Sequence record: OZ035767.1
Direction: 5' to 3' (one strand)
DNA from: Veterinaerplatzvirus T145P1
DNA: 44,816 bases
The translations under genes were made by a program, and so were the position numbers. The notes beneath the pieces were generated by a model. The model saw nothing but the letters and a program-made list of their open reading frames with translations, had not been told where the DNA came from and ran no database searches. Numbering within the stretch: position 1 is the first letter of the stretch; every line of letters begins with the position of its first letter. This document shows, one piece after another, positions 1-44,534 of the stretch.

Positions 1-29
1 ATAATCTGACCTCAACAAAGGAGGATTAA

Positions 30-536
30 ATGAGCAAAGCAGCATTAAAGATGGGTGAGGGAAATTTCAAGGCGCTCTACAACAAGAAGTATGGCGATAT
101 TGCTATGGTGGCAATTAACCGCAAGTACACGCCTGAGGAAGTTTTCGATTTCGCCGTTAGGTACTTCTCATGGGCTGAAAGTACGGCAATCAAGGCCGCT
201 GAGACAGCATCATTTCAGGGCATGGTCACTGAACACCTCATACATAAACCTCGAGTATTCACATTAACCGGGCTGGCGCTCTTCATGGGTGTTAATATCA
301 ATAGGTTCGCTCGCTGGCGTACTGAGGCTGGATACTCTGACGTGATGGAATTCATTGATAACGTAATCTACGAGCAGAAATACCAGCTTGGCGTCGCAGG
401 CATCATCAACTCCACCATCGTTGGTAAAGAGCTTGGCATTGATAAGCCGCAGGAGATTACCATTAGCAACAACTCCACAGCTAACGACGTTGACAGCATG
501 AAGGAAGCGCTGGAATCTGTTATTGGTAAACTATAA
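30..536 (+). CDS. putative terminase small subunit
   Basis: 168-aa ORF with RBS GGAGGA, immediately upstream of the terminase large subunit; assignment by position only. Confidence 0.5.
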   Translation: MSKAALKMGEGNFKALYNKKYGDIAMVAINRKYTPEEVFDFAVRYFSWAESTAIKAAETASFQGMVTEHLIHKPRVFTLTGLALFMGVNINRFARWRTEAGYSDVMEFIDNVIYEQKYQLGVAGIINSTIVGKELGIDKPQEITISNNSTANDVDSMKEALESVIGKL

Positions 537-553
537 CAATAAGAGGGTATAAC

Positions 554-2119
554 ATGTCTTTAGTATGGGAAGAAATGACCATTCAGGAAAAGATGGCGGT
601 TAAGGCGATATCAGAACACAGCTTCGAGGGGTTTCTTCGCTGCTGGTTTTCAATAACGCAAGGCGAGCGATATATCCCTAACTGGCATCACAAATATCTA
701 TGCCGAATTATCGACGAGATTATTGCAGGTGAGCGCAAGGACACTATAATTAACATAGCGCCTGGTAGCGGGAAGACAGAGATCGCATCAATCCACTTCC
801 CGGCCTACTCGATGGTTAAGCTGAAGAAGGTGAGGAACCTTAACATCTCATTTGCTGACTCCCTGGTTAAGCGCAACTCTAAGCGCGTACGTGACCTTAT
901 CAAGTCTCAAGAATTTCAATCACTATGGCCTTGCAAGTTTGGCACATGCAAAGACGATGAACTTCAGGTTCTTGATGAGAGTGGCAGGGTTAGATTTGAG
1001 TCAATATCAAAGGCGGCTGGGGGTCAGATTACTGGTGCTCGAGGTGGTTATATAACAGAAACATATAGCGGAGCCGTTCTATTGGATGATTTTGACAAAC
1101 CCGCAGATATGCTTTCTCCGGTTTATCGAGCTAACAACCACGTAATGCTTAAGAACACAATTCGATCACGTCGCGCTAGCTCTGTAAAGGGAAAGGCAAC
1201 ACCAATTATCTCTATACAGCAGCGCCTGCACGTCAATGACTCAACCTGGTTCATGATGGAAGGCGGTATGGGCATCGAATTCGATTTAATTAAGATACCA
1301 GCGCTAGTTACCGATGATTACATCGATTCACTTCCTGACTGGATTAAAGATCAGTTTGCTGAGGACGTACTAAGCAGTGAATATATTGAGCGAGATGGAG
1401 TAAAGTACTACAGCTACTTTCCTAAAAAGGAATCCGTAAACGACCTGGTGGCAATGTGGGATAGTGACCCGTACACTTTCCTTAGCCAATATCAACAATG
1501 CCCAGTGGCTCTTGGCGGTAACCTGATTAACGTGGATTGGTTCCAGCGTCTTAGTGATACATTCAGGCCTCCAGCTAAGTACGATTACAGATTCATCACA
1601 TGCGATACTGCGATGACTACAAAGAGTTATAGTGACTTCTCCGTGCTTCAGTTATGGGGCTATAAGGATGCTAAGATTTACCTGATAGACCAGCGCAGGG
1701 GAAAATGGGAAGCACCAGAGTTGGAGGCTGAACTGCTGGACTTCGAGAAGAAATCAAGGGCAACCAGTCAGTCAGATGGTATCCTCAGAAGGATTATTAT
1801 CGAGAAGAAAGCGTCTGGTATCGGCCTGATTCAATCAGCTGGCAGGGTTATGCGAACACCGATAGAGCCATACGTACCGGATAACGACAAGCTGACTCGC
1901 GTAATGAGCGCATTGCCACAGATTAAGGCTGGTAATGTCGTTCTTCCAGAGTCTGCGCCGTGGCTAAACGGATTGCTTACTGAGGTTGCTGCTTTTACGG
2001 CAGATGATAGCCACAAACACGACGACCAGATTGACTGTCTAACTATGGCAATCAACCTGGTACTTAACATTGCGGACGACCCCAAAGCGCGACTAATGCG
2101 CATAGCGGGAATTAAATAG
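554..2119 (+). CDS. terminase large subunit (ATPase + nuclease)
   Basis: 521 aa; N-terminal P-loop-like GSGKTE, C-terminal acidic nuclease-like residues; first large gene of a packaging-head-tail module. Confidence 0.8.
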   Translation: MSLVWEEMTIQEKMAVKAISEHSFEGFLRCWFSITQGERYIPNWHHKYLCRIIDEIIAGERKDTIINIAPGSGKTEIASIHFPAYSMVKLKKVRNLNISFADSLVKRNSKRVRDLIKSQEFQSLWPCKFGTCKDDELQVLDESGRVRFESISKAAGGQITGARGGYITETYSGAVLLDDFDKPADMLSPVYRANNHVMLKNTIRSRRASSVKGKATPIISIQQRLHVNDSTWFMMEGGMGIEFDLIKIPALVTDDYIDSLPDWIKDQFAEDVLSSEYIERDGVKYYSYFPKKESVNDLVAMWDSDPYTFLSQYQQCPVALGGNLINVDWFQRLSDTFRPPAKYDYRFITCDTAMTTKSYSDFSVLQLWGYKDAKIYLIDQRRGKWEAPELEAELLDFEKKSRATSQSDGILRRIIIEKKASGIGLIQSAGRVMRTPIEPYVPDNDKLTRVMSALPQIKAGNVVLPESAPWLNGLLTEVAAFTADDSHKHDDQIDCLTMAINLVLNIADDPKARLMRIAGIK

Positions 2120-2162
2120 CACGAATTGCTAAACGCTAGAGCCACGGATGGCGTATAGTTAC
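2117..2162 (+). promoter_or_regulatory. conserved palindrome-promoter element, copy 1
   Basis: ATAGCACGAATTGCTAAA - 22 nt - TATAGTTA; terL stop TAG lies inside the palindrome. Confidence 0.6.
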
Positions 2163-2190
2163 TTCACACCAACAAGAGGAGAAAAGGCAA

Positions 2191-2565
2191 ATGAAAAACA
2201 AATCAAAGGCTTTATATCTTGGAAACACTTATGACGAGTGTTGTGAATTCACGCCGGGAAGAGAGTACGATTGTTACGATCTTGGTGATGGATTTATTGG
2301 TCTTTGCGATGATAATGATACTGAACGTTGCATTAAAAACGGAACGTTCTACAAGTTTAAACTAATCAATGAGGAACATTTTGTAACTGAAACTGAGTGC
2401 GCATCCATGCAGCCTAGCGCCGATAAAAAACCCGAGTTTAGATATTACATCAATGGCGAAGTGGTTACTAAGGTAAAGTTCGACGATACGCTATTATGCG
2501 TCAAGGACTTTGAATCTAGTGGGGTTGATACATCATCAATCAAGTTCGAAGTAAAATTCGAGTAA
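2191..2565 (+). CDS. hypothetical Cys-rich protein (moron-like insertion between terminase and portal)
   Basis: 124 aa, many Cys/Asp; own upstream promoter-like element (2117-2162) and downstream terminator (2587-2610). Confidence 0.55.
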   Translation: MKNKSKALYLGNTYDECCEFTPGREYDCYDLGDGFIGLCDDNDTERCIKNGTFYKFKLINEEHFVTETECASMQPSADKKPEFRYYINGEVVTKVKFDDTLLCVKDFESSGVDTSSIKFEVKFE

Positions 2566-2586
2566 TCAAAAACCGTGTGATAAACT

Positions 2587-2610
2587 AGCCCCCACATGGG
2601 GCTTTTTTTA
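2587..2610 (+). terminator. rho-independent terminator
   Basis: AGCCCC-ACAT-GGGGCT hairpin then T7. Confidence 0.7.
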
Positions 2611-2623
2611 TTGGAGAAATGCA

Positions 2624-3874
2624 ATGGTAAAGACAGACAGCTACGCCAATATCTTTCTCGGCGGCAGTGATGGTAGTGAGATTTACGGGAGCTTACAGAA
2701 TCAGGAGCCTACAATCCTGGCTTCTCTTTATGCGAATAATGCGCTGGTACGTAGAATTATCGACACAATCCCTGAGACAGCATTAGCGGCAGGATTCCAC
2801 ATTGATGGTATTGATGATGAGCCAGCATTTTGGTCGCGATGGGATGACCTGGAAATGACGCAGAATATTAACGACGCCTGGGCGTGGGCGAGATTATTCG
2901 GTGGCGCCGCTATTGTGGCTATCGTTAAGGACAATAGGGCACTAACAAGTGCGGTCAGAGAAGGTGCTGAGCTTGAAACAGTTCGCGTTTACGACCGCAC
3001 GCAAGTAAAAGTACAAACTCGCGAGGAGAATCCCCGTAACGCACGTTTTGGTAAGCCACTAACCTATCGCATCACCACAAATGAGAGCGATATGTTCTAT
3101 GATGTGCACTACAGCCGAATTCACATCATTGACGGAGAGCGAATTCCTAACGTAATGCGTCGGCAAAATGATGGCTGGGGCCGTAGCGTTCTATCCAGTG
3201 ACATTCTTGACTCAATTAAGGATTACACCAACTGTGAACGACTTGCTACGCAGTTACTGAAGCGCAAGCAGCAGGCGGTGTGGAAGGCAAAAGGTCTGGC
3301 TGAGTTATGTGATGATAGCGAAGGATTTGGTGCAGCTCGATTGAGACTTGCACAGGTTGACAACAATAGCGGCGTAGGCCAGGCGATTGGTATCGATGCG
3401 GAATCTGAAGAATACAGCATTCTCAACTCCGATATTGGCGGGATCGATGCGTTCCTGGATAAGAAGTTCGATAGAATCGTTGCCCTGAGCGGTATCCATG
3501 AAATCATCCTGAAAAACAAGAACGTTGGTGGTGTGTCATCAAGCCAGAATACAGCCCTTGAGACATTCCATAAGCTAGTTGACCGCAAACGTAACTCTGA
3601 GTTGCTTCCTATTCTTGGGTTCTTAATCCCGTTCATCGTAAATGTAGAAGAGTGGTCAGTTGAGTTTTATCCTTTAGCTCAGGAATCAAGCAAGGATAAG
3701 GCTGAGATTCTGGAGAAGAACGTAAACAGCATTGCATCACTAATTGCATCTGGCGCTATGAATGCTAACGAGGCGCGTGATACACTACGAGCCATCGCAC
3801 CAGAGATTAAGATTGGTGATGGTGATATTGAAGCTCAACAACAAGAAAAATCAGAGGAGGTTGTGATTGCTTAA
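2624..3874 (+). CDS. putative portal protein
   Basis: 416 aa, positioned between terminase and head genes. Confidence 0.65.
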   Translation: MVKTDSYANIFLGGSDGSEIYGSLQNQEPTILASLYANNALVRRIIDTIPETALAAGFHIDGIDDEPAFWSRWDDLEMTQNINDAWAWARLFGGAAIVAIVKDNRALTSAVREGAELETVRVYDRTQVKVQTREENPRNARFGKPLTYRITTNESDMFYDVHYSRIHIIDGERIPNVMRRQNDGWGRSVLSSDILDSIKDYTNCERLATQLLKRKQQAVWKAKGLAELCDDSEGFGAARLRLAQVDNNSGVGQAIGIDAESEEYSILNSDIGGIDAFLDKKFDRIVALSGIHEIILKNKNVGGVSSSQNTALETFHKLVDRKRNSELLPILGFLIPFIVNVEEWSVEFYPLAQESSKDKAEILEKNVNSIASLIASGAMNANEARDTLRAIAPEIKIGDGDIEAQQQEKSEEVVIA

Positions 3875-9292: not shown

Positions 9293-9338
9293 ATAGCACT
9301 TTTTGCTAAAGCGGTTATTCAACTTTGCTGTATAGTTA
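9293..9338 (+). promoter_or_regulatory. conserved palindrome-promoter element, copy 2
   Basis: ATAGCACTTTTTGCTAAA - 22 nt - TATAGTTACC then CATCGAAACGAAA leader. Confidence 0.6.
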
Positions 9339-26499: not shown

Positions 26500-26524
26500 A
26501 TAAAAAAACCTCCCGAAGGAGGTT
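26500..26524 (-). terminator. rho-independent terminator of primase transcript (minus strand)
   Basis: AACCTCC-CGAA-GGAGGTT hairpin followed by T-run on the minus strand. Confidence 0.7.
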
Positions 26525-27449
26525 AGTCTAGTAATTCGCTCGCCTTGTATATTCGCTTTCTTATTCCTGATTTGAAGTGGTTATCATTATTTGGCATTAC
26601 AACATCAAGATTGCGATCGTCAGCAACGGCGAGTAAATCAAAATCGCTGCGAGTACAAGCGATGCGTAACTTGTAGTTTCTAAGCGCGTAAGCAACCATT
26701 TCCATGTTGTAACTGGAGTGGCAAACAAGCACACAGCGGTTCCCAGTAGCAATGTGAACGCGATAGCCATCAATGAAATTATCGACCAGATAAGCGTACT
26801 CATCATCCTTAAAGGAACCAATAACAGAAACAGACTGGCGAGAATAATCTTTTGCAGCATAACTAACATCTCCCTCCTCATTGATAAACATTACATTGCA
26901 CATCTCTTCTGATATGCCGTCACTATAAGCCATAAAGCACGGAACTGCGTGGATTAATTCACCTGATTTCGTCCTGCCAACATCAAAACCGAACTCGCTA
27001 TAGATACCCTCGTATGTACTGAGAGGAGTTGATTCTACTCTTTCCGTCCTTTCCATTATCTCTAAGCATCTTTCGTGATCAATCTGAGCGCCCATTTTGT
27101 ATGGTGATGTTCTTGAAGCTCTTTTGTTTGCTTTTGATATAACCTCTACTGGAGCGAGATTCAGCCAATCACCAAGCGTATCTATTGTTTCACTATAACT
27201 CATTCCAGAACACTTCATTACCCAACCAACACCAGAATCATTTCCACACTGGTTGCATATTGCTGCGCCATTTCCCTTTTCTTGACCTAACTCATCAGTG
27301 AAGCGAAACCTATCCTTGCCAAAGCAGTAAGGGCACGGACCATGTTTCTTGCTGAGATTCTCCTTTGTCCATCCAAGATGCGATGAGTAGAACTCACTCC
27401 ACATCCCTTTCATCTTGGCTATCACTTCGTTCTTATCATGGTGACTCAT
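26523..27449 (-). CDS. DNA primase (zinc-binding)
   Basis: Start ATG 27449 with RBS GGAGG; CPYC...CNQCG zinc-ribbon near the N-terminus. Confidence 0.6.
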   Translation of the reverse strand: MSHHDKNEVIAKMKGMWSEFYSSHLGWTKENLSKKHGPCPYCFGKDRFRFTDELGQEKGNGAAICNQCGNDSGVGWVMKCSGMSYSETIDTLGDWLNLAPVEVISKANKRASRTSPYKMGAQIDHERCLEIMERTERVESTPLSTYEGIYSEFGFDVGRTKSGELIHAVPCFMAYSDGISEEMCNVMFINEEGDVSYAAKDYSRQSVSVIGSFKDDEYAYLVDNFIDGYRVHIATGNRCVLVCHSSYNMEMVAYALRNYKLRIACTRSDFDLLAVADDRNLDVVMPNNDNHFKSGIRKRIYKASELLD

Positions 27450-27504
27450 AATTACCTCCATAAACAATAAAGGCACTATACATAATGCAAAGTGCCATTG
27501 TTTA

Positions 27505-27984
27505 TCAAATCGTGCTGTTTTGCTCTTTCTTCTTTTGGTTCTCTAATTTTATCTTGCGCCATGAACGACACTCTGGCTTAGTGGCTAATTCAGCCTCAGT
27601 GACGACTCGCAGCATATGGCGCTTTTTGCACCGAAGTGTCAGCGGTTTCCCGTTGCCGTCGAATTGCAGGTCTGGTCGGCAGAATGTAGCGCGAAAACCT
27701 TCTCCATTTCGCTTATAGTAGTTGTGAGAAAGTTGAGCCCCACGCGCAGAAATCATACCGCGCTTAAACCATTCTTCTACAGCCTGTGGTGTTACCTTTA
27801 ACTGCTTTGCGATATTCGCCTTTGTGCCGAAGAAATCAAGAACTATCTCTAGCCGCGCGCGTAGCCCGGCTCTTACTTCATCTTTTAAAACATAGTAGCC
27901 TGAAGGTCGTTTACGTTGCTTTTTGTCTTCGGTGCGGATGGTTCCGTTATTGCCGTTAATTGTTCGCTTGTCGACTGTATTCAT
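27505..27984 (-). CDS. HTH DNA-binding protein, putative transcriptional regulator
   Basis: 159 aa, basic; HTH-like segment TKANIAKQLKVTPQAVEEWF; divergent from helicase promoter element. Confidence 0.5.
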   Translation of the reverse strand: MNTVDKRTINGNNGTIRTEDKKQRKRPSGYYVLKDEVRAGLRARLEIVLDFFGTKANIAKQLKVTPQAVEEWFKRGMISARGAQLSHNYYKRNGEGFRATFCRPDLQFDGNGKPLTLRCKKRHMLRVVTEAELATKPECRSWRKIKLENQKKKEQNSTI

Positions 27985-27996
27985 TTCATTACCTCA

Positions 27997-28040
27997 ATAG
28001 CATTTTTTGTTAAAAGTCATCCTGATTTGATGGTATTATT
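27997..28040 (+). promoter_or_regulatory. conserved palindrome-promoter element (variant), helicase operon
   Basis: ATAGCATTTTTTGTTAAAA - about 21 nt - GATGGTATTATT; sits between divergent regulator and helicase genes. Confidence 0.5.
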
Positions 28041-28085: not shown

Positions 28086-30080
28086 ATGTTGCCTATCGAG
28101 AAGCTGGTTGCAAATTTCGATAAAGAAAGAATCAAACAGATTCAGAAAGACTATCAGTTTGGAGAGATAACCCCTTACGAATTCCAGTGCGTGACATTTG
28201 ATGCAATCGGAAAGGCTATTGGCAAGTACGAGGCACCATTTATCGCAGACCTTTCAGTATCTGCGGGTAAGACAATCATTCTTGCCATGATTGGTAAGCG
28301 CATGGAGCAGCTTGGGCTTCCCTATATGGTTCTCTCTCGCCAGTCAGAGATTATCAGCCAGAACTCAGAAGAGCTTCGTAATTTCGGCATACGTAATAGC
28401 GTCTATTGCGCTGGCCTTAACGTCAAATCAGTTTACTACCCAACTATAGTGGCCAGCGAGGGTACGGCAGCCAACGGCTTGTTTAAGGGGCTTGGTGACT
28501 ATGTTCCGGCAGTTATCGCTATAGATGAGTGTCACATGGTCGATCACATGGATATCGTGGAGGCTGAAGAGAATGAAGAAACATTTGAGCAAATGAGCAC
28601 AAAGAAAGGCGATATGGTTTTTAAGGATGGCGTAAACACAGGATTGCTTGGTACTGGTCGTGCGCAGTACACGCTAATTATCACCGAGATGAAACGTCGT
28701 TGTCGTGAGAAGTACGGGCGTGAGCTTCGTATATTCGGTCTTACTGGCAGCCCGTATCGTAACAACGATCATATCGTCGTTAGCAACCCAAACATCCGTG
28801 GATTCTGGCGCAAAACAGTGATTCAGGTGCCAACAAATTATCTGGTTGATTTGGGCTTCGTTGTTCCTACTGTTTATGGTGAAGTTGGTGACCTGGGTTA
28901 TGACCTTAGTGAGTTTGCGCCAGACGGAAGCGATGGCGTTAAAGACTTCAGCAAGAAAGAAATGGATGCAATGGCTGCAAAGATTCACGACAACCAATCA
29001 ATGACCCAAAAGATAATGGGTTTTGTTGTGAAAATACTCGAGACTCGTAACGCTGCATTGGTAACATGCGCTGGCAAACTCCATTGTGATGAGGCTGCTG
29101 CGGCACTACCAGATGGATACCCTTACGCCATCATCACAGACTCTACGGGAGAGAGGAAGCGCAGGGAGATTCTGGCTGATTGCCAGACAGGTAAGTACAA
29201 AATAATATTCCAGATTGGTTGTCTTACTACGGGCGTAAACCAGCCGCTGTGGGATACTAGCGTCATACTACGCAAGATTGGCAGCCTAACGCTTATGATT
29301 CAGCTTCTTGGTAGGGGGATGCGCAAACTTAATAGATCTCATATTGATGCTGGTTTTCATAAAGAAGATCACCTTGTGCTGGATTTTGCTGGCGCACTTG
29401 ATGATATGGCTGAGCTTTACTTTGACCCAATTATTGAAGAGATTCAGGCTGAGAAGTTTAAATCCTCAAGAAAAGGTGGCGATGAGGTTCGTCAGTGTCC
29501 GCAATGTGGATATGAAAATTCCCCATTCGCTCGTCGCTGTAGCAATAAGATTGATGGCGTTAGATGCGATCACTTCTTTCAGTTCACAATTTGCGAAGAC
29601 ATTACCGACGCGCAAACTAAATCGGTAATTAAAAAGGGTTGTGGCGCTCGCAATGACATAGCAGCAAAGGTTTGCAGGGAATGCGGCGAGATGCTTAAAG
29701 ACCCAAATGCTAACCTGACTGGCAAAATGTATCGTCGTGGTGATTACCTTCGTGTTTATGATTTTCAAGTTGGGTTAAGTAAGAATCAGACAGGCATTGT
29801 AGTTAAGTACAATATAATGGCTCATAACGGAGAGAGATTTAACGCTTGGGAGTTCTTTAATCCAGAATCAGACCATCGAGTTTGCAGTGTGCTCTGGAAG
29901 AACTTTTGCTTAGCTCATATTGAGAATCGCACGGAAGCGGCACGAATTGGCAGGCTTAAAAATGCCAGAATGATTATGACTAACGTAGATAAGTTCCGTG
30001 CGCCAGTTCAGGTTACGCATCGCCGGAATGCAAAAGGAAAGGACGTGATAGCGTTTAAGAATTTTGGAGAATTATTATGA
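28086..30080 (+). CDS. SF2 DNA helicase with C-terminal zinc-ribbon
   Basis: Walker A-like SAGKT, DECH box, QLLGRGMR motif VI, CPQCG...CRECG zinc ribbons. Confidence 0.8.
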   Translation: MLPIEKLVANFDKERIKQIQKDYQFGEITPYEFQCVTFDAIGKAIGKYEAPFIADLSVSAGKTIILAMIGKRMEQLGLPYMVLSRQSEIISQNSEELRNFGIRNSVYCAGLNVKSVYYPTIVASEGTAANGLFKGLGDYVPAVIAIDECHMVDHMDIVEAEENEETFEQMSTKKGDMVFKDGVNTGLLGTGRAQYTLIITEMKRRCREKYGRELRIFGLTGSPYRNNDHIVVSNPNIRGFWRKTVIQVPTNYLVDLGFVVPTVYGEVGDLGYDLSEFAPDGSDGVKDFSKKEMDAMAAKIHDNQSMTQKIMGFVVKILETRNAALVTCAGKLHCDEAAAALPDGYPYAIITDSTGERKRREILADCQTGKYKIIFQIGCLTTGVNQPLWDTSVILRKIGSLTLMIQLLGRGMRKLNRSHIDAGFHKEDHLVLDFAGALDDMAELYFDPIIEEIQAEKFKSSRKGGDEVRQCPQCGYENSPFARRCSNKIDGVRCDHFFQFTICEDITDAQTKSVIKKGCGARNDIAAKVCRECGEMLKDPNANLTGKMYRRGDYLRVYDFQVGLSKNQTGIVVKYNIMAHNGERFNAWEFFNPESDHRVCSVLWKNFCLAHIENRTEAARIGRLKNARMIMTNVDKFRAPVQVTHRRNAKGKDVIAFKNFGELL

Positions 30081-30496
30081 AGATTACAGATAAAGAAGAT
30101 TACATTGAGTTTTACCCGGGTCCGGTTAAGTCATGCCCTAAAGAGGATGACGAACAAATCTTTTGCTCTGATTGGGTTAAGTATAACTACCCAGATATGG
30201 TATTTTTCCATTGCGTGAATGAGGGAAAGAAAACCATTGGTCAAGCAAGAAAAGACCAGGCTAAGGGGCTTCTAAAAGGCGTATCAGACTGTATGTTTCT
30301 TATTCCTGAATCACTTCGAGGTAAGTATCCTTTCGGAGCTATAGAGCTAAAGAGGGCTGGCAAAACTCAAGCAAGTCCAGTCAGCGAAGAACAGAAGGCA
30401 TTCCTGAAAAGTGTAATGGAATCAGGCGGTTTCTCGGCAGTCGCCTACGGACGTGAGGGTTTTCTTGCAGCATTCAAAGAAATGATTTCAAAATAG
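30077..30496 (+). CDS. VRR-NUC domain nuclease
   Basis: 139 aa with PD-(D/E)XK-like D...ELK core; ATGA-coupled to helicase. Confidence 0.6.
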   Translation: MKITDKEDYIEFYPGPVKSCPKEDDEQIFCSDWVKYNYPDMVFFHCVNEGKKTIGQARKDQAKGLLKGVSDCMFLIPESLRGKYPFGAIELKRAGKTQASPVSEEQKAFLKSVMESGGFSAVAYGREGFLAAFKEMISK

Positions 30497-30538
30497 CACG
30501 AATTGCTAAAGGCGATTTTAAAAGATGGGGTATAGTTA
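30493..30538 (+). promoter_or_regulatory. conserved palindrome-promoter element
   Basis: ATAGCACGAATTGCTAAA - 22 nt - TATAGTTACTCCATCGAAACGAAAC; VRR-NUC stop TAG inside palindrome. Confidence 0.6.
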
Positions 30539-35347: not shown

Positions 35348-36931
35348 TCACCCCAGCAATCTCGGATTAATGTAAACTTTATCACCAATCAGGCACGTAT
35401 AGTTTTTCTCATCAAGCATTGGCAGTAAGTGATCTTTAATCTTCGTCATCACTCCAGCCTGAGCCTCGAACGGCTTAACCTTTCGCGCCGCTTCATACAA
35501 TGAGCGAATGCCAACAACACCCTTACCGTTTTTACCCTGCTTGATCAGGATATCAATCAGCTTATTCATCTCGGCATTGTCGCCAGCGTGACCAGCCGCG
35601 TTGGCAGATGACAAATAAGTCTTGCTAAGCTCCTGGAACATGATTACAGCTTCTTGCATGGTATCAAGCTCAATCTCTCTGGATTTCTGTGGACTCCCAC
35701 CGCTAGGGTTGAACCAGTTGCGCACTGTGTGAAGAACAGCAGCAATCCTGATAGCCTGCTTATCGAATTTACCCAGCGCGCCGCGCAACATTGTGTGGGA
35801 ATACTTACCGCCGTCCGCAAGGTGCGGCTCCATTTCCTGACGTGCCCGGTTTAGATATTTCATCGCTGAGTTGCTAACCGTCAACTTTACTTCTTGCTCA
35901 TTCATGATTTCGTGAACCAGGCGGAAGTAGTTAGCCTTAAGCTCACCATCAATTGGCTCGTAAGTTGAGTTGCCATTCTCATCGACGAATACACGCTCGC
36001 CAAGGAATGATTTTTCACGCACAAGTAGAAAACGTTCCGACACACCAATACCACGAGCACCAGCATTCATGATTGCGTTTATTGTCTCATCTTGCGCAAT
36101 TACAGAGATGCATCCCATAGCGACGAAGCTCATGTTGTTTTCTGCGTTCGCACGCGCAATGGACACGTTACCAGCATCCCACGCCTTGAGTACGAGCTCG
36201 CTGTTCGTTTTCTTTGAGCCATCACCATAGGTCATACCTAGCAGAGAGTTCACGCTCGTTGCTTCATCAGAGATAACCGCGAAGTTGCCCTGGCGGTTGT
36301 TTATTCGCGCAAGACCTTCAGGCGTCGTATCTGATACTGGAAATACGATATCGCACATCTTTTCCAGCTTCTCCTCTAAATCCTCTTTCTCCTCAAAGAG
36401 AGACGCCATCTCTGATGGTGACTTTTCCTGCTTCATCTCTTTGGATAATGCAGACAGCTTTGCCATAATCTTTTTACGCTCACGCTTTCGCACTTCATTA
36501 AGCCGCTCAGTCTCAGCAATCATTGGCGCAATAGAAAGCGAGTTAATTGCTGATTTACCTGTGGATGGTGGCTGACTGGTTACTACGTATAGAGAGGTCG
36601 GTTGCTGGGTTCCGTGATACTCTACTGTAAAACGTCCCAGCATGGCGGCAGAAATACACCCCAGAAAGTGCATATAAGCTGAAGACTCTGGAAATTGAAC
36701 AGAACGGGCAATATTGGCTGACAGCTTACCAACAACATCAATGTCATTACCGAGTGAGATTACTGGATACTTGTCATTAGCCGCATCAATCTCAACTGGC
36801 GCTTTCCAGAATGATTGAGACTGACGATATCCATTGGCATTAATAGCGACGCGCAGGGGTGGGAGGTTGTCTGCGGCAGCAATTGCCATAACCTGTTCAA
36901 CAGATAGCTTATCTTCGTTGAAATCAAACAT
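35348..36931 (-). CDS. P-loop NTPase of unknown function (possible replication/primase-associated ATPase)
   Basis: 527 aa; Walker A PPSTGKS and Walker B-like VISDEA. Confidence 0.55.
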   Translation of the reverse strand: MFDFNEDKLSVEQVMAIAAADNLPPLRVAINANGYRQSQSFWKAPVEIDAANDKYPVISLGNDIDVVGKLSANIARSVQFPESSAYMHFLGCISAAMLGRFTVEYHGTQQPTSLYVVTSQPPSTGKSAINSLSIAPMIAETERLNEVRKRERKKIMAKLSALSKEMKQEKSPSEMASLFEEKEDLEEKLEKMCDIVFPVSDTTPEGLARINNRQGNFAVISDEATSVNSLLGMTYGDGSKKTNSELVLKAWDAGNVSIARANAENNMSFVAMGCISVIAQDETINAIMNAGARGIGVSERFLLVREKSFLGERVFVDENGNSTYEPIDGELKANYFRLVHEIMNEQEVKLTVSNSAMKYLNRARQEMEPHLADGGKYSHTMLRGALGKFDKQAIRIAAVLHTVRNWFNPSGGSPQKSREIELDTMQEAVIMFQELSKTYLSSANAAGHAGDNAEMNKLIDILIKQGKNGKGVVGIRSLYEAARKVKPFEAQAGVMTKIKDHLLPMLDEKNYTCLIGDKVYINPRLLG

Positions 36932-37117
36932 TACTTCTCTCCGTGTTGTTTCTGAGCGGCCATTATAACAACGACCGCTTATAAAGCATTATCAATTTGT
37001 GCTATTAATTGTTCTTAATCCACTTTAGACACATCCACAATCCAGCCCCATAGAATGCAATCTTGAGAACTTCAGCTAAGACAAGGATAATAAAGTATCC
37101 ACCACCAAGTAAATCAA

Positions 37118-37746: not shown

Positions 37747-37790
37747 TAACTATACATTGAAAGCCCCGAAGGGCTTTAGCAATTAGTGCT
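37747..37790 (-). promoter_or_regulatory. conserved palindrome-promoter element (minus strand)
   Basis: Reverse complement: AGCACTAATTGCTAAA - 22 nt containing a GC hairpin - TATAGTTA, then CGAAACGAAACGAAAC leader. Confidence 0.6.
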
Positions 37791-37937
37791 GTTTCGTGCT
37801 TTCTCTATCGCCTTGAGCATAATCTCGTGACTTTCCAGTAAGTCCTCTCGGAACCAATCTCCACAAGGCCAGCCTTTTCCGCTATAGGCACTTATGACCT
37901 CGAGATCGAAATAATTTATCTCAGATGGTAATAGCAT
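37776..37937 (-). CDS. hypothetical small protein
   Basis: 53-aa ORF, ATGA-coupled; stop codon lies inside the palindromic element. Confidence 0.35.
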   Translation of the reverse strand: MLLPSEINYFDLEVISAYSGKGWPCGDWFREDLLESHEIMLKAIEKARNSTNC

Positions 37938-38716: not shown

Positions 38717-38926
38717 TTTTGTTACCTTTTGAGTTTTTTTATTATCGACATCTCTTCAACGTACTCGCTACAACTCGGGATTTTACTCCCGGCCCGGCAT
38801 CCTAACAAAAGGACCCGATCGGCGCTTTGGTGGGTGAGGTAACGCTTCCTCACATTGCGCGGTAGTATTTACTCCTTTTGGTCTCTTTCGAGAGTGACTC
38901 AGAGTCTGCTACCGTGTCGATGAGAT

Positions 38927-38973
38927 TAAGTATACGCATAGTTAGCCACACTGTCTTTAGCAAAAAGTGCTAT
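38927..38973 (-). promoter_or_regulatory. conserved palindrome-promoter element (minus strand)
   Basis: Reverse complement: ATAGCACTTTTTGCTAAA - about 23 nt - TATACTTA. Confidence 0.5.
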
Positions 38974-38987
38974 TCGTTAGATTTATG

Positions 38988-39075
38988 TATTGTTGCAGAT
39001 ATTGCAATGATTCACTTGATTATTGCACATACAGCAATATTGCTTCCGATGCAATGATGTTTTTGATTGTTGCGA
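38988..39075. repeat. cluster of ATTGCA/TGCAAT half-sites and short palindromes
   Basis: ATTGCAAT (39001-39008), AGCAATATTGCT (39033-39044), plus repeated TTGCA/GCAAT units in the divergent control region. Confidence 0.6.
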
Positions 39076-39260
39076 AAAGTGAAATTAAGTGGTGAGTGAG
39101 TGAATGAAAGATGGATGGACTACCATACAAGTTGATTTTTACCAATCTATGGGAGCCTCACGGATATACGCGTATCCTCCGTATACTCAGTGTCGTCACA
39201 AAAGTTAGTGACCACTAACCTACGTTTTTACGCGATATATACACACGATATACAATATAA

Positions 39261-39326
39261 TATCTATATATATCAACCTTTTACTTTATTATTATTATTA
39301 TTATTATATATATGTATACTGTGTAT
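39261..39326. repeat. AT-rich repeat copy B with longer (TTA)n microsatellite
   Basis: Same unit as 20693-20750 with about two extra TTA triplets. Confidence 0.8.
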
Positions 39327-39533
39327 ACCGGTAATTGGTGAGATTATTGATATGTTCCGCGCAGATATTCTGACACCTGTCAGAAATGGATGGCATTGTA
39401 GGAATAAAAGGCACATATATAGGGAATGGCTTCAAAAATCTGTACACATCGGATACGGCACATTTACAACCAGCAATGGAGGGGCCTCTGGAGGCAAGAA
39501 GCGTATCCATGATAAAATAGACGAAAATATACA

Positions 39534-39602: not shown

Positions 39603-40151
39603 ATGCAGAAAGTAACACTAGGTGAAGTTATCCGTGAGATGGTGCGCAACGCGATGGTGTCCGAGAGTGGTGAGTTTAAAGTTCCGGTTAGCCAGATATT
39701 CAAACTGGTTCGAGGCAAGGAATACCCTGAAATGGTGTATGACGAAGATACTAGTGAGATCCTCAACCTGGCAGATAGGGCGATGCCGGAACTAAAGAAC
39801 TCATACATCTATAACACAGTGTCGAGAATGACAGAGCTTCGCGATGCTAATAAGCGAGCGAGATATAAGTTCATCTGGATTGATGATGACGGAGAGCAAA
39901 CAAGGCCCGGTAGCTTCGACGGTGATGGCGCTGATAAATACCTGGTCATATACATTGAGAACGGCGCGCACTGGACTGGGAGTCGCGAAAAGAAAAAGCA
40001 GGAAGCGGAGAAAGAGGCGGCTATCATTGAAAAGTTCAAGTCTAGACTGCTCAAGCTGTCACCAAGTGTTGCTGGCTTGGAAGGTGAAGAACTTAAGGGC
40101 GCTGTTACAATGATTAATGCTTATCAGGAAATGATTAAGGAGACTAAGTAG
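39603..40151 (+). CDS. hypothetical early protein
   Basis: 182 aa, RBS GAGGT; first gene downstream of early promoter region. Confidence 0.55.
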   Translation: MQKVTLGEVIREMVRNAMVSESGEFKVPVSQIFKLVRGKEYPEMVYDEDTSEILNLADRAMPELKNSYIYNTVSRMTELRDANKRARYKFIWIDDDGEQTRPGSFDGDGADKYLVIYIENGAHWTGSREKKKQEAEKEAAIIEKFKSRLLKLSPSVAGLEGEELKGAVTMINAYQEMIKETK

Positions 40152-40241: not shown

Positions 40242-40287
40242 ATAGCACTTTTTGCCTAACGCGGTAATGCCATGGATGGCATAATAG
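40242..40287 (+). promoter_or_regulatory. conserved palindrome-promoter element (variant)
   Basis: ATAGCACTTTTTGCCTAA - 22 nt - CATAATAGCCTCATCGAAACGAGA. Confidence 0.55.
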
Positions 40288-40323: not shown

Positions 40324-40542
40324 ATGAGCAAGACAATCACGCTGCAATGCCTTAAGACAAATAACCCAGAGTTCTTAAAAGGTCACAAATATGTGGCAAC
40401 CCTGGTGGATGGGAAAACATGGGCGGTTAAGGGTGGATTCCAGGATTACAAATTCCCACTTGAGCACATACCTGGCGGAAACCTTGGTTTTGTTAGTGAC
40501 TGCCGCTCAGTTAAGTTTGTTTTTGAGGTTGTAATGAAATAG
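40324..40542 (+). CDS. hypothetical protein
   Basis: 72 aa, own promoter-like element. Confidence 0.5.
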   Translation: MSKTITLQCLKTNNPEFLKGHKYVATLVDGKTWAVKGGFQDYKFPLEHIPGGNLGFVSDCRSVKFVFEVVMK

Positions 40543-40582
40543 CAATAATTGCTAAATCTTCCGCAAGGCCATTTGATATAGT
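40539..40582 (+). promoter_or_regulatory. conserved palindrome-promoter element (perfect palindrome AGCAAT-A-ATTGCT)
   Basis: ATAGCAATAATTGCTAAA - 22 nt - TATAGT. Confidence 0.55.
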
Positions 40583-42075: not shown

Positions 42076-42122
42076 ATAGCACGAATTGCTAAACCCGCTC
42101 CTGCGGGTTTTGTTATAGTTAG
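42076..42122 (+). promoter_or_regulatory. conserved palindrome-promoter element
   Basis: ATAGCACGAATTGCTAAA - 22 nt containing hairpin CCCGC..GCGGG - TATAGTTA. Confidence 0.6.
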
Positions 42123-44457: not shown

Positions 44458-44534
44458 GCTCGAGTGGCGAAAGTGGATATCGCAAGAGACTTCTAATCTC
44501 TAGATTGCTGGTTCGAATCCAGCCTCGAGCGCCA
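44458..44534 (+). tRNA. tRNA-Arg (anticodon UCU), CCA encoded
   Basis: Hand-folded cloverleaf with all four stems fully Watson-Crick paired (7/4/5/5 bp); U8, A14, G18G19, U33; anticodon loop CUUCUAA; T-loop TTCGAAT; discriminator G then CCA. Confidence 0.9.

Follow-up and report, generated by a model that had tools for sequence, protein, structure and literature searches.

Arrays of short repeats beside the cut are an already known kind of element at packaging-start (pac) sites, as at pacL and pacR of SPP1, the pac of P1 and cosB of lambda. The locus described here, in a T1-like phage, resembles SPP1 pacL/pacC/pacR, the hexamer repeats of P1 pac, P22 pac and lambda cosB in having clustered short repeats within ~150 bp of the cut as placed below, and it resembles the headful pac phages in its apparent packaging in one direction and its small terminase (TerS) of the P22 gp3 family. 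Unlike the known pac regions, its repeats are dyad-symmetric 17-mers set in two 47-bp units, and its TerS does not co-vary with the motif. Whereas P22 carries pac inside the terS gene, the region here occupies an intergenic gap between divergent genes, with terS ~5.9 kb downstream.

Among relatives, the pac of TLS was restriction-mapped to the homologous intergenic gap and assigned only through a 6-base resemblance to P22 (PMC11447400). The authors of SU57 described pac as not identified, but placed it in the untranslated region homologous to the gap. Recent papers on close relatives likewise call pac unidentified, and the array reported below is not described in the literature that we searched. 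As a conserved array 30–55 bp from mapped genome ends, it offers a concrete target for packaging and transduction experiments, for consistent genome start coordinates and for engineering or synthetic rebooting, in a group of phages that are common laboratory contaminants as well as therapy candidates.

The window (the whole stretch of DNA analysed, 44,816 nucleotides; sequence record OZ035767.1) is 100% identical to Veterinaerplatzvirus T145P1 (Drexlerviridae, Braunvirinae), a virulent T1-like siphovirus that infects E. coli. The array lies within a gap of ~880 bp without a credible gene, bounded by small leftward genes that end at 38717 and by the first rightward gene, which encodes a DUF7174 protein and starts at 39603. 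A divergent gap of ~700 bp with small flanking genes was also found in T1, TLS, Rtp, Jk06, Sd1 and others, and it is invariably the DUF7174 gene that comes first after the pac region (T1, TLS, Rtp and others). Its product is 42% to 95% identical among phages, several of which carry the array; the predicted model has a pLDDT of 83 and gives weak fold matches only. Domain and family profile searches with the small flanking ORFs gave no match to a DNA-binding domain, and when the entire window was scanned against Rfam a tRNA gene was the sole match, with none in the gap. The features discussed below are collected in Table 1.

Table 1. Positions of the array, its sites and the related features in the window.
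Feature	Position	Strand	Evidence or remark
Small terminase TerS, P22 gp3 family; candidate reader of the pac region	30..536	+	PF16677 E 9e-13; phrog_606
Cro-like HTH "transcriptional regulator", T1 ST23 homologue; candidate reader	27505..27984	-	phrog_2856 E 2e-82
-10-like hexamer TATACT, 31 nt from the palindrome centre (centre at ~ -42)	38929..38934	-	
Copy of the 21-nt promoter element, AATAGCACTTTTTGCTAAAGA, palindrome TAGCA-N5-TGCTA, leftward operon	38956..38973	-	one of 18 copies
GATTTAT box between promoter element and S1	38980..38986	+	14-phage alignment
Whole array, two tandem 47-bp units (S1+linker+S2, S3+linker+S4)	38992..39085		direct-repeat families D1, D2
Site S1, GTTGC-AGATATT-GCAAT, 17-bp dyad	38992..39008		half-sites 0.97, spacer 0.91 identical, 14 phages
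Site S2, ATTGC-ACATACA-GCAAT, perfect dyad	39022..39038		
Site S3, ATTGC-TTCCGAT-GCAAT, perfect dyad, directly abuts S2	39039..39055		
Site S4, GTTGC-GAAAAGT-GAAAT	39069..39085		right half degenerate in T145P1
Purine-rich tract TGGTGAGTGAGTGAATGAAAGATGGATGGA	39090..39119	+	GAATGA invariant
Inferred zone of the first packaging cut (pac end), packaging rightward	39116..39141	+	ends of MSK, UDF157lw and SU57
AT-rich repeat region, up to 88% A+T	39227..39330	+	sole sigma-70-like rightward promoter matches
DUF7174 gene (phrog_4841), first rightward gene	39603..40151	+	profile matches
tRNA gene, close to the right end of the window; on the circular map it precedes terS	44458-44531		RF00005, 66 bits

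A preliminary description of this DNA had reported a cluster of TTGCA/GCAAT repeats at 38988-39075, including two perfect palindromes, and had proposed that it was a multi-site operator for a dimeric protein. The repeats and both palindromes, ATTGCAAT (39001-39008) and AGCAATATTGCT (39033-39044), are present and the cluster is real, with the array extending ~10 bp past its right edge. The TTGCA/TGCAA units resolve into four 17-bp dyad-symmetric sites, S1 to S4, of the form ATTGC-N7-GCAAT. The two palindromes are by-products of this layout and not its units, ATTGCAAT being the right half of S1 with its flank and AGCAATATTGCT the junction of S2 and S3. Centre spacings of 30, 17 and 30 bp reflect a 47-bp unit (site, 13-bp linker, site) present twice, and the linkers (39009-39021 and 39056-39068) carry TGAT...TGATT. 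In most relatives (Sd1, TR2, IME542, Msk, Rtp and others) the right half of S4 is a full GCAAT.

Only four perfect TTGC-N7-GCAA sites occur in the 44.8 kb, and three of them fall inside the array. In a shuffle test, three perfect sites within 100 bp arose in 0/1000 shuffles and two in 1/1000, so a chance origin of the array is ruled out. When 14 phages of three subfamilies or genera (Braunvirinae, Rogunavirinae and Nouzillyvirus) were aligned, the half-sites were 0.97 identical, against 0.80 for the spacers, 0.86 for the linkers and 0.75 for the next 64 bp; S3 alone has 12 different spacer variants among relatives, with its half-sites intact. The stretch is non-coding: variable columns were spread 19/19/18 across the three codon phases, two phages lack the only ATG over the array and three carry stops in frame. 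Two small ORFs at 38878-39057 and 38967-39095 were rejected as genes on these grounds. Because the array is non-random and non-coding and its half-sites are conserved over its spacers, we regard it as a conserved protein-binding array, as for a dimeric protein. This part of the earlier proposal agrees with the dyad symmetry and the footprint-like conservation.

The sole perfect ATTGC-N7-GCAAT dyad outside the array is at positions 99-115 of the window, inside terS, where it encodes D-I-A-M-V-A-I-N. It is kept in relatives whose TerS is 92-99% identical and lost in Sd1 and more distant phages. A second TTGC-N7-GCAA pair, 31 bp apart, was seen in one metagenomic lineage at the 3' end of a head-morphogenesis gene (L030 14094-14139; also L031 and L057-L061), where it encodes ..ERLQHLQWEGKRIALNAIHD.. 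and may be a coding coincidence of I-A-x-x-A-I and L-Q-x-L-Q codons. Scans of genome and viral collections for the two-site pattern were swamped by coding I-A-x-x-A-I repeats (tail-fibre genes, for example) and revealed no host regulon. Since such coding sequence abundantly generates the pattern in databases, both the terS dyad, most likely a by-product of I-A-x-x-A-I-type codons, and the head-gene pair were discounted as true sites.

On either side of the array there are further conserved elements. In the GATTTAT box six bases are invariant and the seventh is present in at least 90% of the 14 phages. The box and the P22 pac sequence cited by the TLS authors have AGATTTAT in common, a weak match of 8 contiguous bases; this 8-mer occurs 4 times in the window. 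Similarity to P22 pac was rejected, as only AGATTTAT is common and the 22-mer scores poorly at the array. To the right, a G-rich tract occupies the position equivalent to the purine-rich tract in all lineages. The AT-rich region beyond it carries (TAT)n and (TA)n runs as well as inverted repeats that interlock, and a scan for IHF sites gave one consensus match, at 39271. T1, TLS and the L030 lineage have a similar tract after their pac region. Such a tract could contain early promoters or serve as an unwinding element, and might do both.

Several database records end inside or beside the array or its homologous region, and we therefore checked the genome termini of relatives. The T1 record annotates a terminal redundancy of 1..2800; its first 17 bases, GTTGCATGGTGTGCAAC, are an array-type site, and a second site follows 30 bp past the first. 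For phage MSK, PhageTerm placed the terminus at 36862 on the forward strand (p 1.6e-9; PMC8421802). The sequence at this terminus, which falls between GATGGATGGACTA and CCATACAAG, is identical to that of the window at the 39122/39123 junction, 37 bp right of S4. PhageTerm was also used to re-order the UDF157lw record (PMC10838988), the first base of which aligns to 39116 (junction 39115/39116), and the record of SU57, which shares its genus with T145P1, starts at ~39141. The record starts of T1 and Rtp may be conventions and not base-exact ends. By homology to these termini the array lies next to the unique end made by the first packaging cut; since the MSK, UDF157lw and SU57 ends map to 39116-39141, it would stand 30-55 bp upstream of that cut, with packaging running rightward.

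On this evidence the array is more likely to belong to a packaging-start region than to be the early/late gene switch that had been suggested for it, as no site overlaps a core promoter and no regulator gene is adjacent. We tentatively take it to be a recognition or architectural part of pac, a plausible reading that still falls somewhat short of an even chance. Its position at the mapped ends of relatives (T1, MSK, UDF157lw, SU57 and TLS) favours this, as do sites that behave like protein-binding sites, a layout that is universal among the lineages examined and the analogy with SPP1, P1 and lambda cosB. Weighing against it are dyads that are not matched by covariation in TerS and a motif that is patchy; nor does nearness to an end by itself prove a role in packaging.

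We infer that binding at the array serves packaging, in the following way. A dimeric protein would occupy the four dyad sites in the two 47-bp units, and the resulting complex would mark the place on the concatemer for the first terminase cut, 30-55 bp to the right (~39116-39141), from which headful packaging would then start rightward. The small terminase, of P22 gp3 type, might be the binder and use the GATTGTTG flank that is shared; alternatively, an accessory factor from phage or host might play the part that IHF has at lambda cosB. An additional effect on transcription would be possible, because the array lies just upstream of a leftward promoter. T1 can also start packaging in the lambda P-Q region ("esp-lambda"); this region contains no TTGC-N7-GCAA pair, a result that is either uninformative or counts against a role of the array in packaging.

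In all lineages recovered the order of elements was the same: a leftward 21-nt element, 100-130 bp of short repeats, the G-rich tract and the end. The repeats themselves differ, and the TTGC-N7-GCAA motif is patchy across the Drexlerviridae lineages recovered. Braunvirinae and Rogunavirinae have four copies; T1 and a metagenomic lineage with a TerS only 46-48% identical have two, spaced by 30-31 bp. Other lineages have TATTCC/GGAATA repeats, which are present too in the left part of the T1 region; further ones have TGATT-rich runs, and still others TAATCA repeats at the array position. The TGATT-rich run of TLS is preceded by two TAGACCGATTGGTCTA palindromes, 16 bp each and abutting, at the array position (49779-49814 of the TLS record; L015 1380-1415). 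Presumably these resemble the E. coli RutR box, TTGACCAnnTGGTCAA. The only sub-motif common to nearly all lineages, left half-sites included, is GATTGTTG, as might be expected if a conserved terminase read it. Use of the 21-nt element as a route to more pac regions returned mostly other promoter copies or unrelated contigs and was abandoned.

TerS is homologous to the nonamer ring of P22 gp3 (PDB 3P9A, E 3e-16), and from a ring one would expect recognition of direct repeats instead of dyads. Compared with TerS of other lineages, that of TTGC-type lineages has no residues specific to it, and the N-terminal half of TerS in the L030 group is almost identical to that of phages without sites. Among 16 partial or whole relatives, covering mostly ~10 kb on each side of terS, no ORF co-occurred with the motif. 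Because the sites are dyad-symmetric and TerS shows no covariation, their direct reader is perhaps an accessory dimer rather than the terminase ring.

The minus-strand promoter that had been placed beside the cluster corresponds to a real promoter-like unit, with the array just upstream of its element and hexamer (Table 1). Its element belongs to a 21-nt intergenic repeat, aaATAGCACnnnTTGnTAAAA, of which the TLS paper reports 18 copies with the function left open (PMC11447400). The T145P1 window likewise has 18 copies, all oriented with transcription (on the plus strand, for example, 2116-2133, 9293-9310, 30493-30510, 40242-40259, 40539-40556 and 42076-42093; on the minus strand 38956-38973, 37775-37792, 36988-37005 and 27501-27518). 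The palindrome centre is 29-32 nt (mode 30) upstream of a TATAGT-like hexamer in the 18 elements, which puts it at ~ -42, and the TTGCTA part, 22 nt from the -10, is too far away for a normal -35. TAGCA-N5-TGCTA at ~ -42 is class II activator-site geometry, and it suggests that the elements mark activator-dependent middle or late promoters. The question raised by the TLS repeat thereby becomes a testable model, with the palindrome at a fixed distance of ~ -42 from its -10 hexamer.

The preliminary description had also seen in AGCAATATTGCT the core of a palindrome at 40541. That palindrome is one of the 18 promoter elements (40539-40556, ATAGCAATAATTGCTAAA), whereas AGCAATATTGCT is the junction of two sites and has another spacing, so that the two are not equivalent; the resemblance holds instead for the true sites. 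Read as TTGCA-N5-TGCAA, they share with TAGCA/TGCTA the 5-N5-5 geometry and four of five bases per half-site. They differ in the second base of each half-site and in having no -10 partner: ATAGCAC-N3-TTGnTAAA with a -10-like hexamer 30 nt off was found at 38956-38973 and 40539-40556, and at none of S1 to S4. The array sites are also missing from many lineages that retain the 21-nt repeat.

This kinship, together with 17-bp dyads that have free spacers and stand in pairs 30 bp apart, as in classic operators of HTH dimers, bears on a second explanation: the paired sites would be bound cooperatively by an HTH dimer of the phage, perhaps the Cro-like protein, which would thereby modulate the leftward promoter, the rightward early promoters or both. 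We consider this possible, though rather unlikely. As at lambdoid OR/OL, bound by Cro and CI, several adjacent pseudo-symmetric 17-bp sites (four here, within the 14-18 bp of such dyads) lie in a divergent control region; here they have the leftward promoter unit (38929-38973) on one side and, on the other, the AT-rich region with the sole rightward sigma-70-like matches. Unlike OR/OL, the T145P1 sites lie off the promoter hexamers, no repressor gene is adjacent and the phage is virulent. One 21-nt copy is only 19 bp left of S1, but the -10 is at 38929-38934, the palindrome ends at 38973 and the rightward matches begin at 39227. The centres of S1 to S4 are ~78 to 155 bp upstream of where leftward transcription would start, and the predicted rightward matches (39227-39307) are at least 140 bp away from them; simple promoter occlusion is therefore unlikely. 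Our literature search found no transcriptome of a T1-like phage.

The Cro-like HTH gene (its PF14549 match being below cutoff) belongs to the core genes of the family, and the recognition helix of its product varies by lineage, which speaks for an operator; the helix does not track the motif, however, reading TPQAVEEW in the window and SNQTVQGW in T1, both of which have TTGC sites. The gene is moreover 11 kb off, so that no adjacent, co-varying HTH regulator accompanies the sites, and the search of ~10 kb around terS gave no other candidate. What might pass for a second operator pair, in the L030 group, lies in coding sequence of the kind that yields such sites unaided.

A more speculative idea, which we think improbable, joins the packaging and transcription sides: a single family of phage-encoded dimeric regulators would read both the array and the 18 promoter palindromes, and the four near-cognate sites at the end would be their sink or sensor, through which activation of the -42 promoters would depend on the state of pac (free, or occupied and cut by terminase). 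If true, a virulent phage without its own polymerase or sigma factor would have a timing switch tied to packaging.

That the sites are iterons of a replication origin is comparably improbable. An initiator would bind the four repeats, melt the AT-rich region to the right and load the DUF3987 helicase and the primase; it could be the C-terminal part of the helicase, or the Cro-like protein, whose gene neighbours that of the primase. The locus does resemble lambda ori in its four repeats, each with a dyad of its own, and in the very AT-rich tract further on. Also in favour are the IHF consensus of that tract and the phage genes for a primase, a DUF3987 helicase and, within the primase operon, an HTH protein. 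Unlike the lambda iterons, the T145P1 sites are irregularly spaced (30/17/30), and the AT-rich tract starts ~145 bp from S4 instead of adjoining it. Sequences of 9 nt that differ from a DnaA box by one mismatch are in mild excess (5 in 0.9 kb, the genome-wide density being 1.4 per kb), but the scan found no perfect DnaA box, and the GC-skew profile of the window follows gene orientation only. No initiator was identified, and beyond form nothing speaks positively for an origin. The authors of the TLS paper found no iteron-type origin either (PMC11447400).

It is very unlikely that the sites serve a regulator of the host, for instance E. coli CytR, which has the half-site (G)TTGCA(TT)/TGCAA. Consensus forms of CytR are TGCAA-N2-3-TTGCA and octamer repeats with 10-13 bp spacers (PMC3454398); all eight half-sites of the array read (A/G)TTGCx, and the right half of S1 and left half of S2, like those of S3 and S4, are separated by 13 bp. 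A patchy phage distribution with no co-varying phage protein would also fit a host factor. CytR acts with flanking CRP sites, however, and none was found within 38850-39250 at up to 2 mismatches, so that the half-sites are not flanked by two CRP sites as in a CytR-CRP operator. The shared core is only 5 bases, and the CytR motif is known to be weak (PMC3454398), whereas the array sites are sharply conserved.

A leftover tandem duplication without present function is hardly credible: the array is formally a 47-bp duplication, but its half-sites stay fixed while spacers drift across three subfamilies and T1 shares the site pair with the distant metagenomic lineage.

Two further observations concern the surroundings of these features. 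The Cro-like gene lies immediately upstream of a primase gene (26523-27476, minus strand) and is divergent from a large helicase-like gene (28086-30080, plus strand); promoter palindromes flank it at 27501-27518 (minus) and 27997-28014 (plus). The block looks like a replication or regulation module and would be a possible source of a DNA binder. In T145P1, ~230 bp (38718-38950) separate the leftward promoter from the first gene, a stretch that is missing from most of the relatives compared, in which the first leftward gene starts ~50 bp from the promoter element. This extra stretch has no Rfam match, is relatively G+C-rich (40-57% A+T) and would give a leader of ~205 nt.
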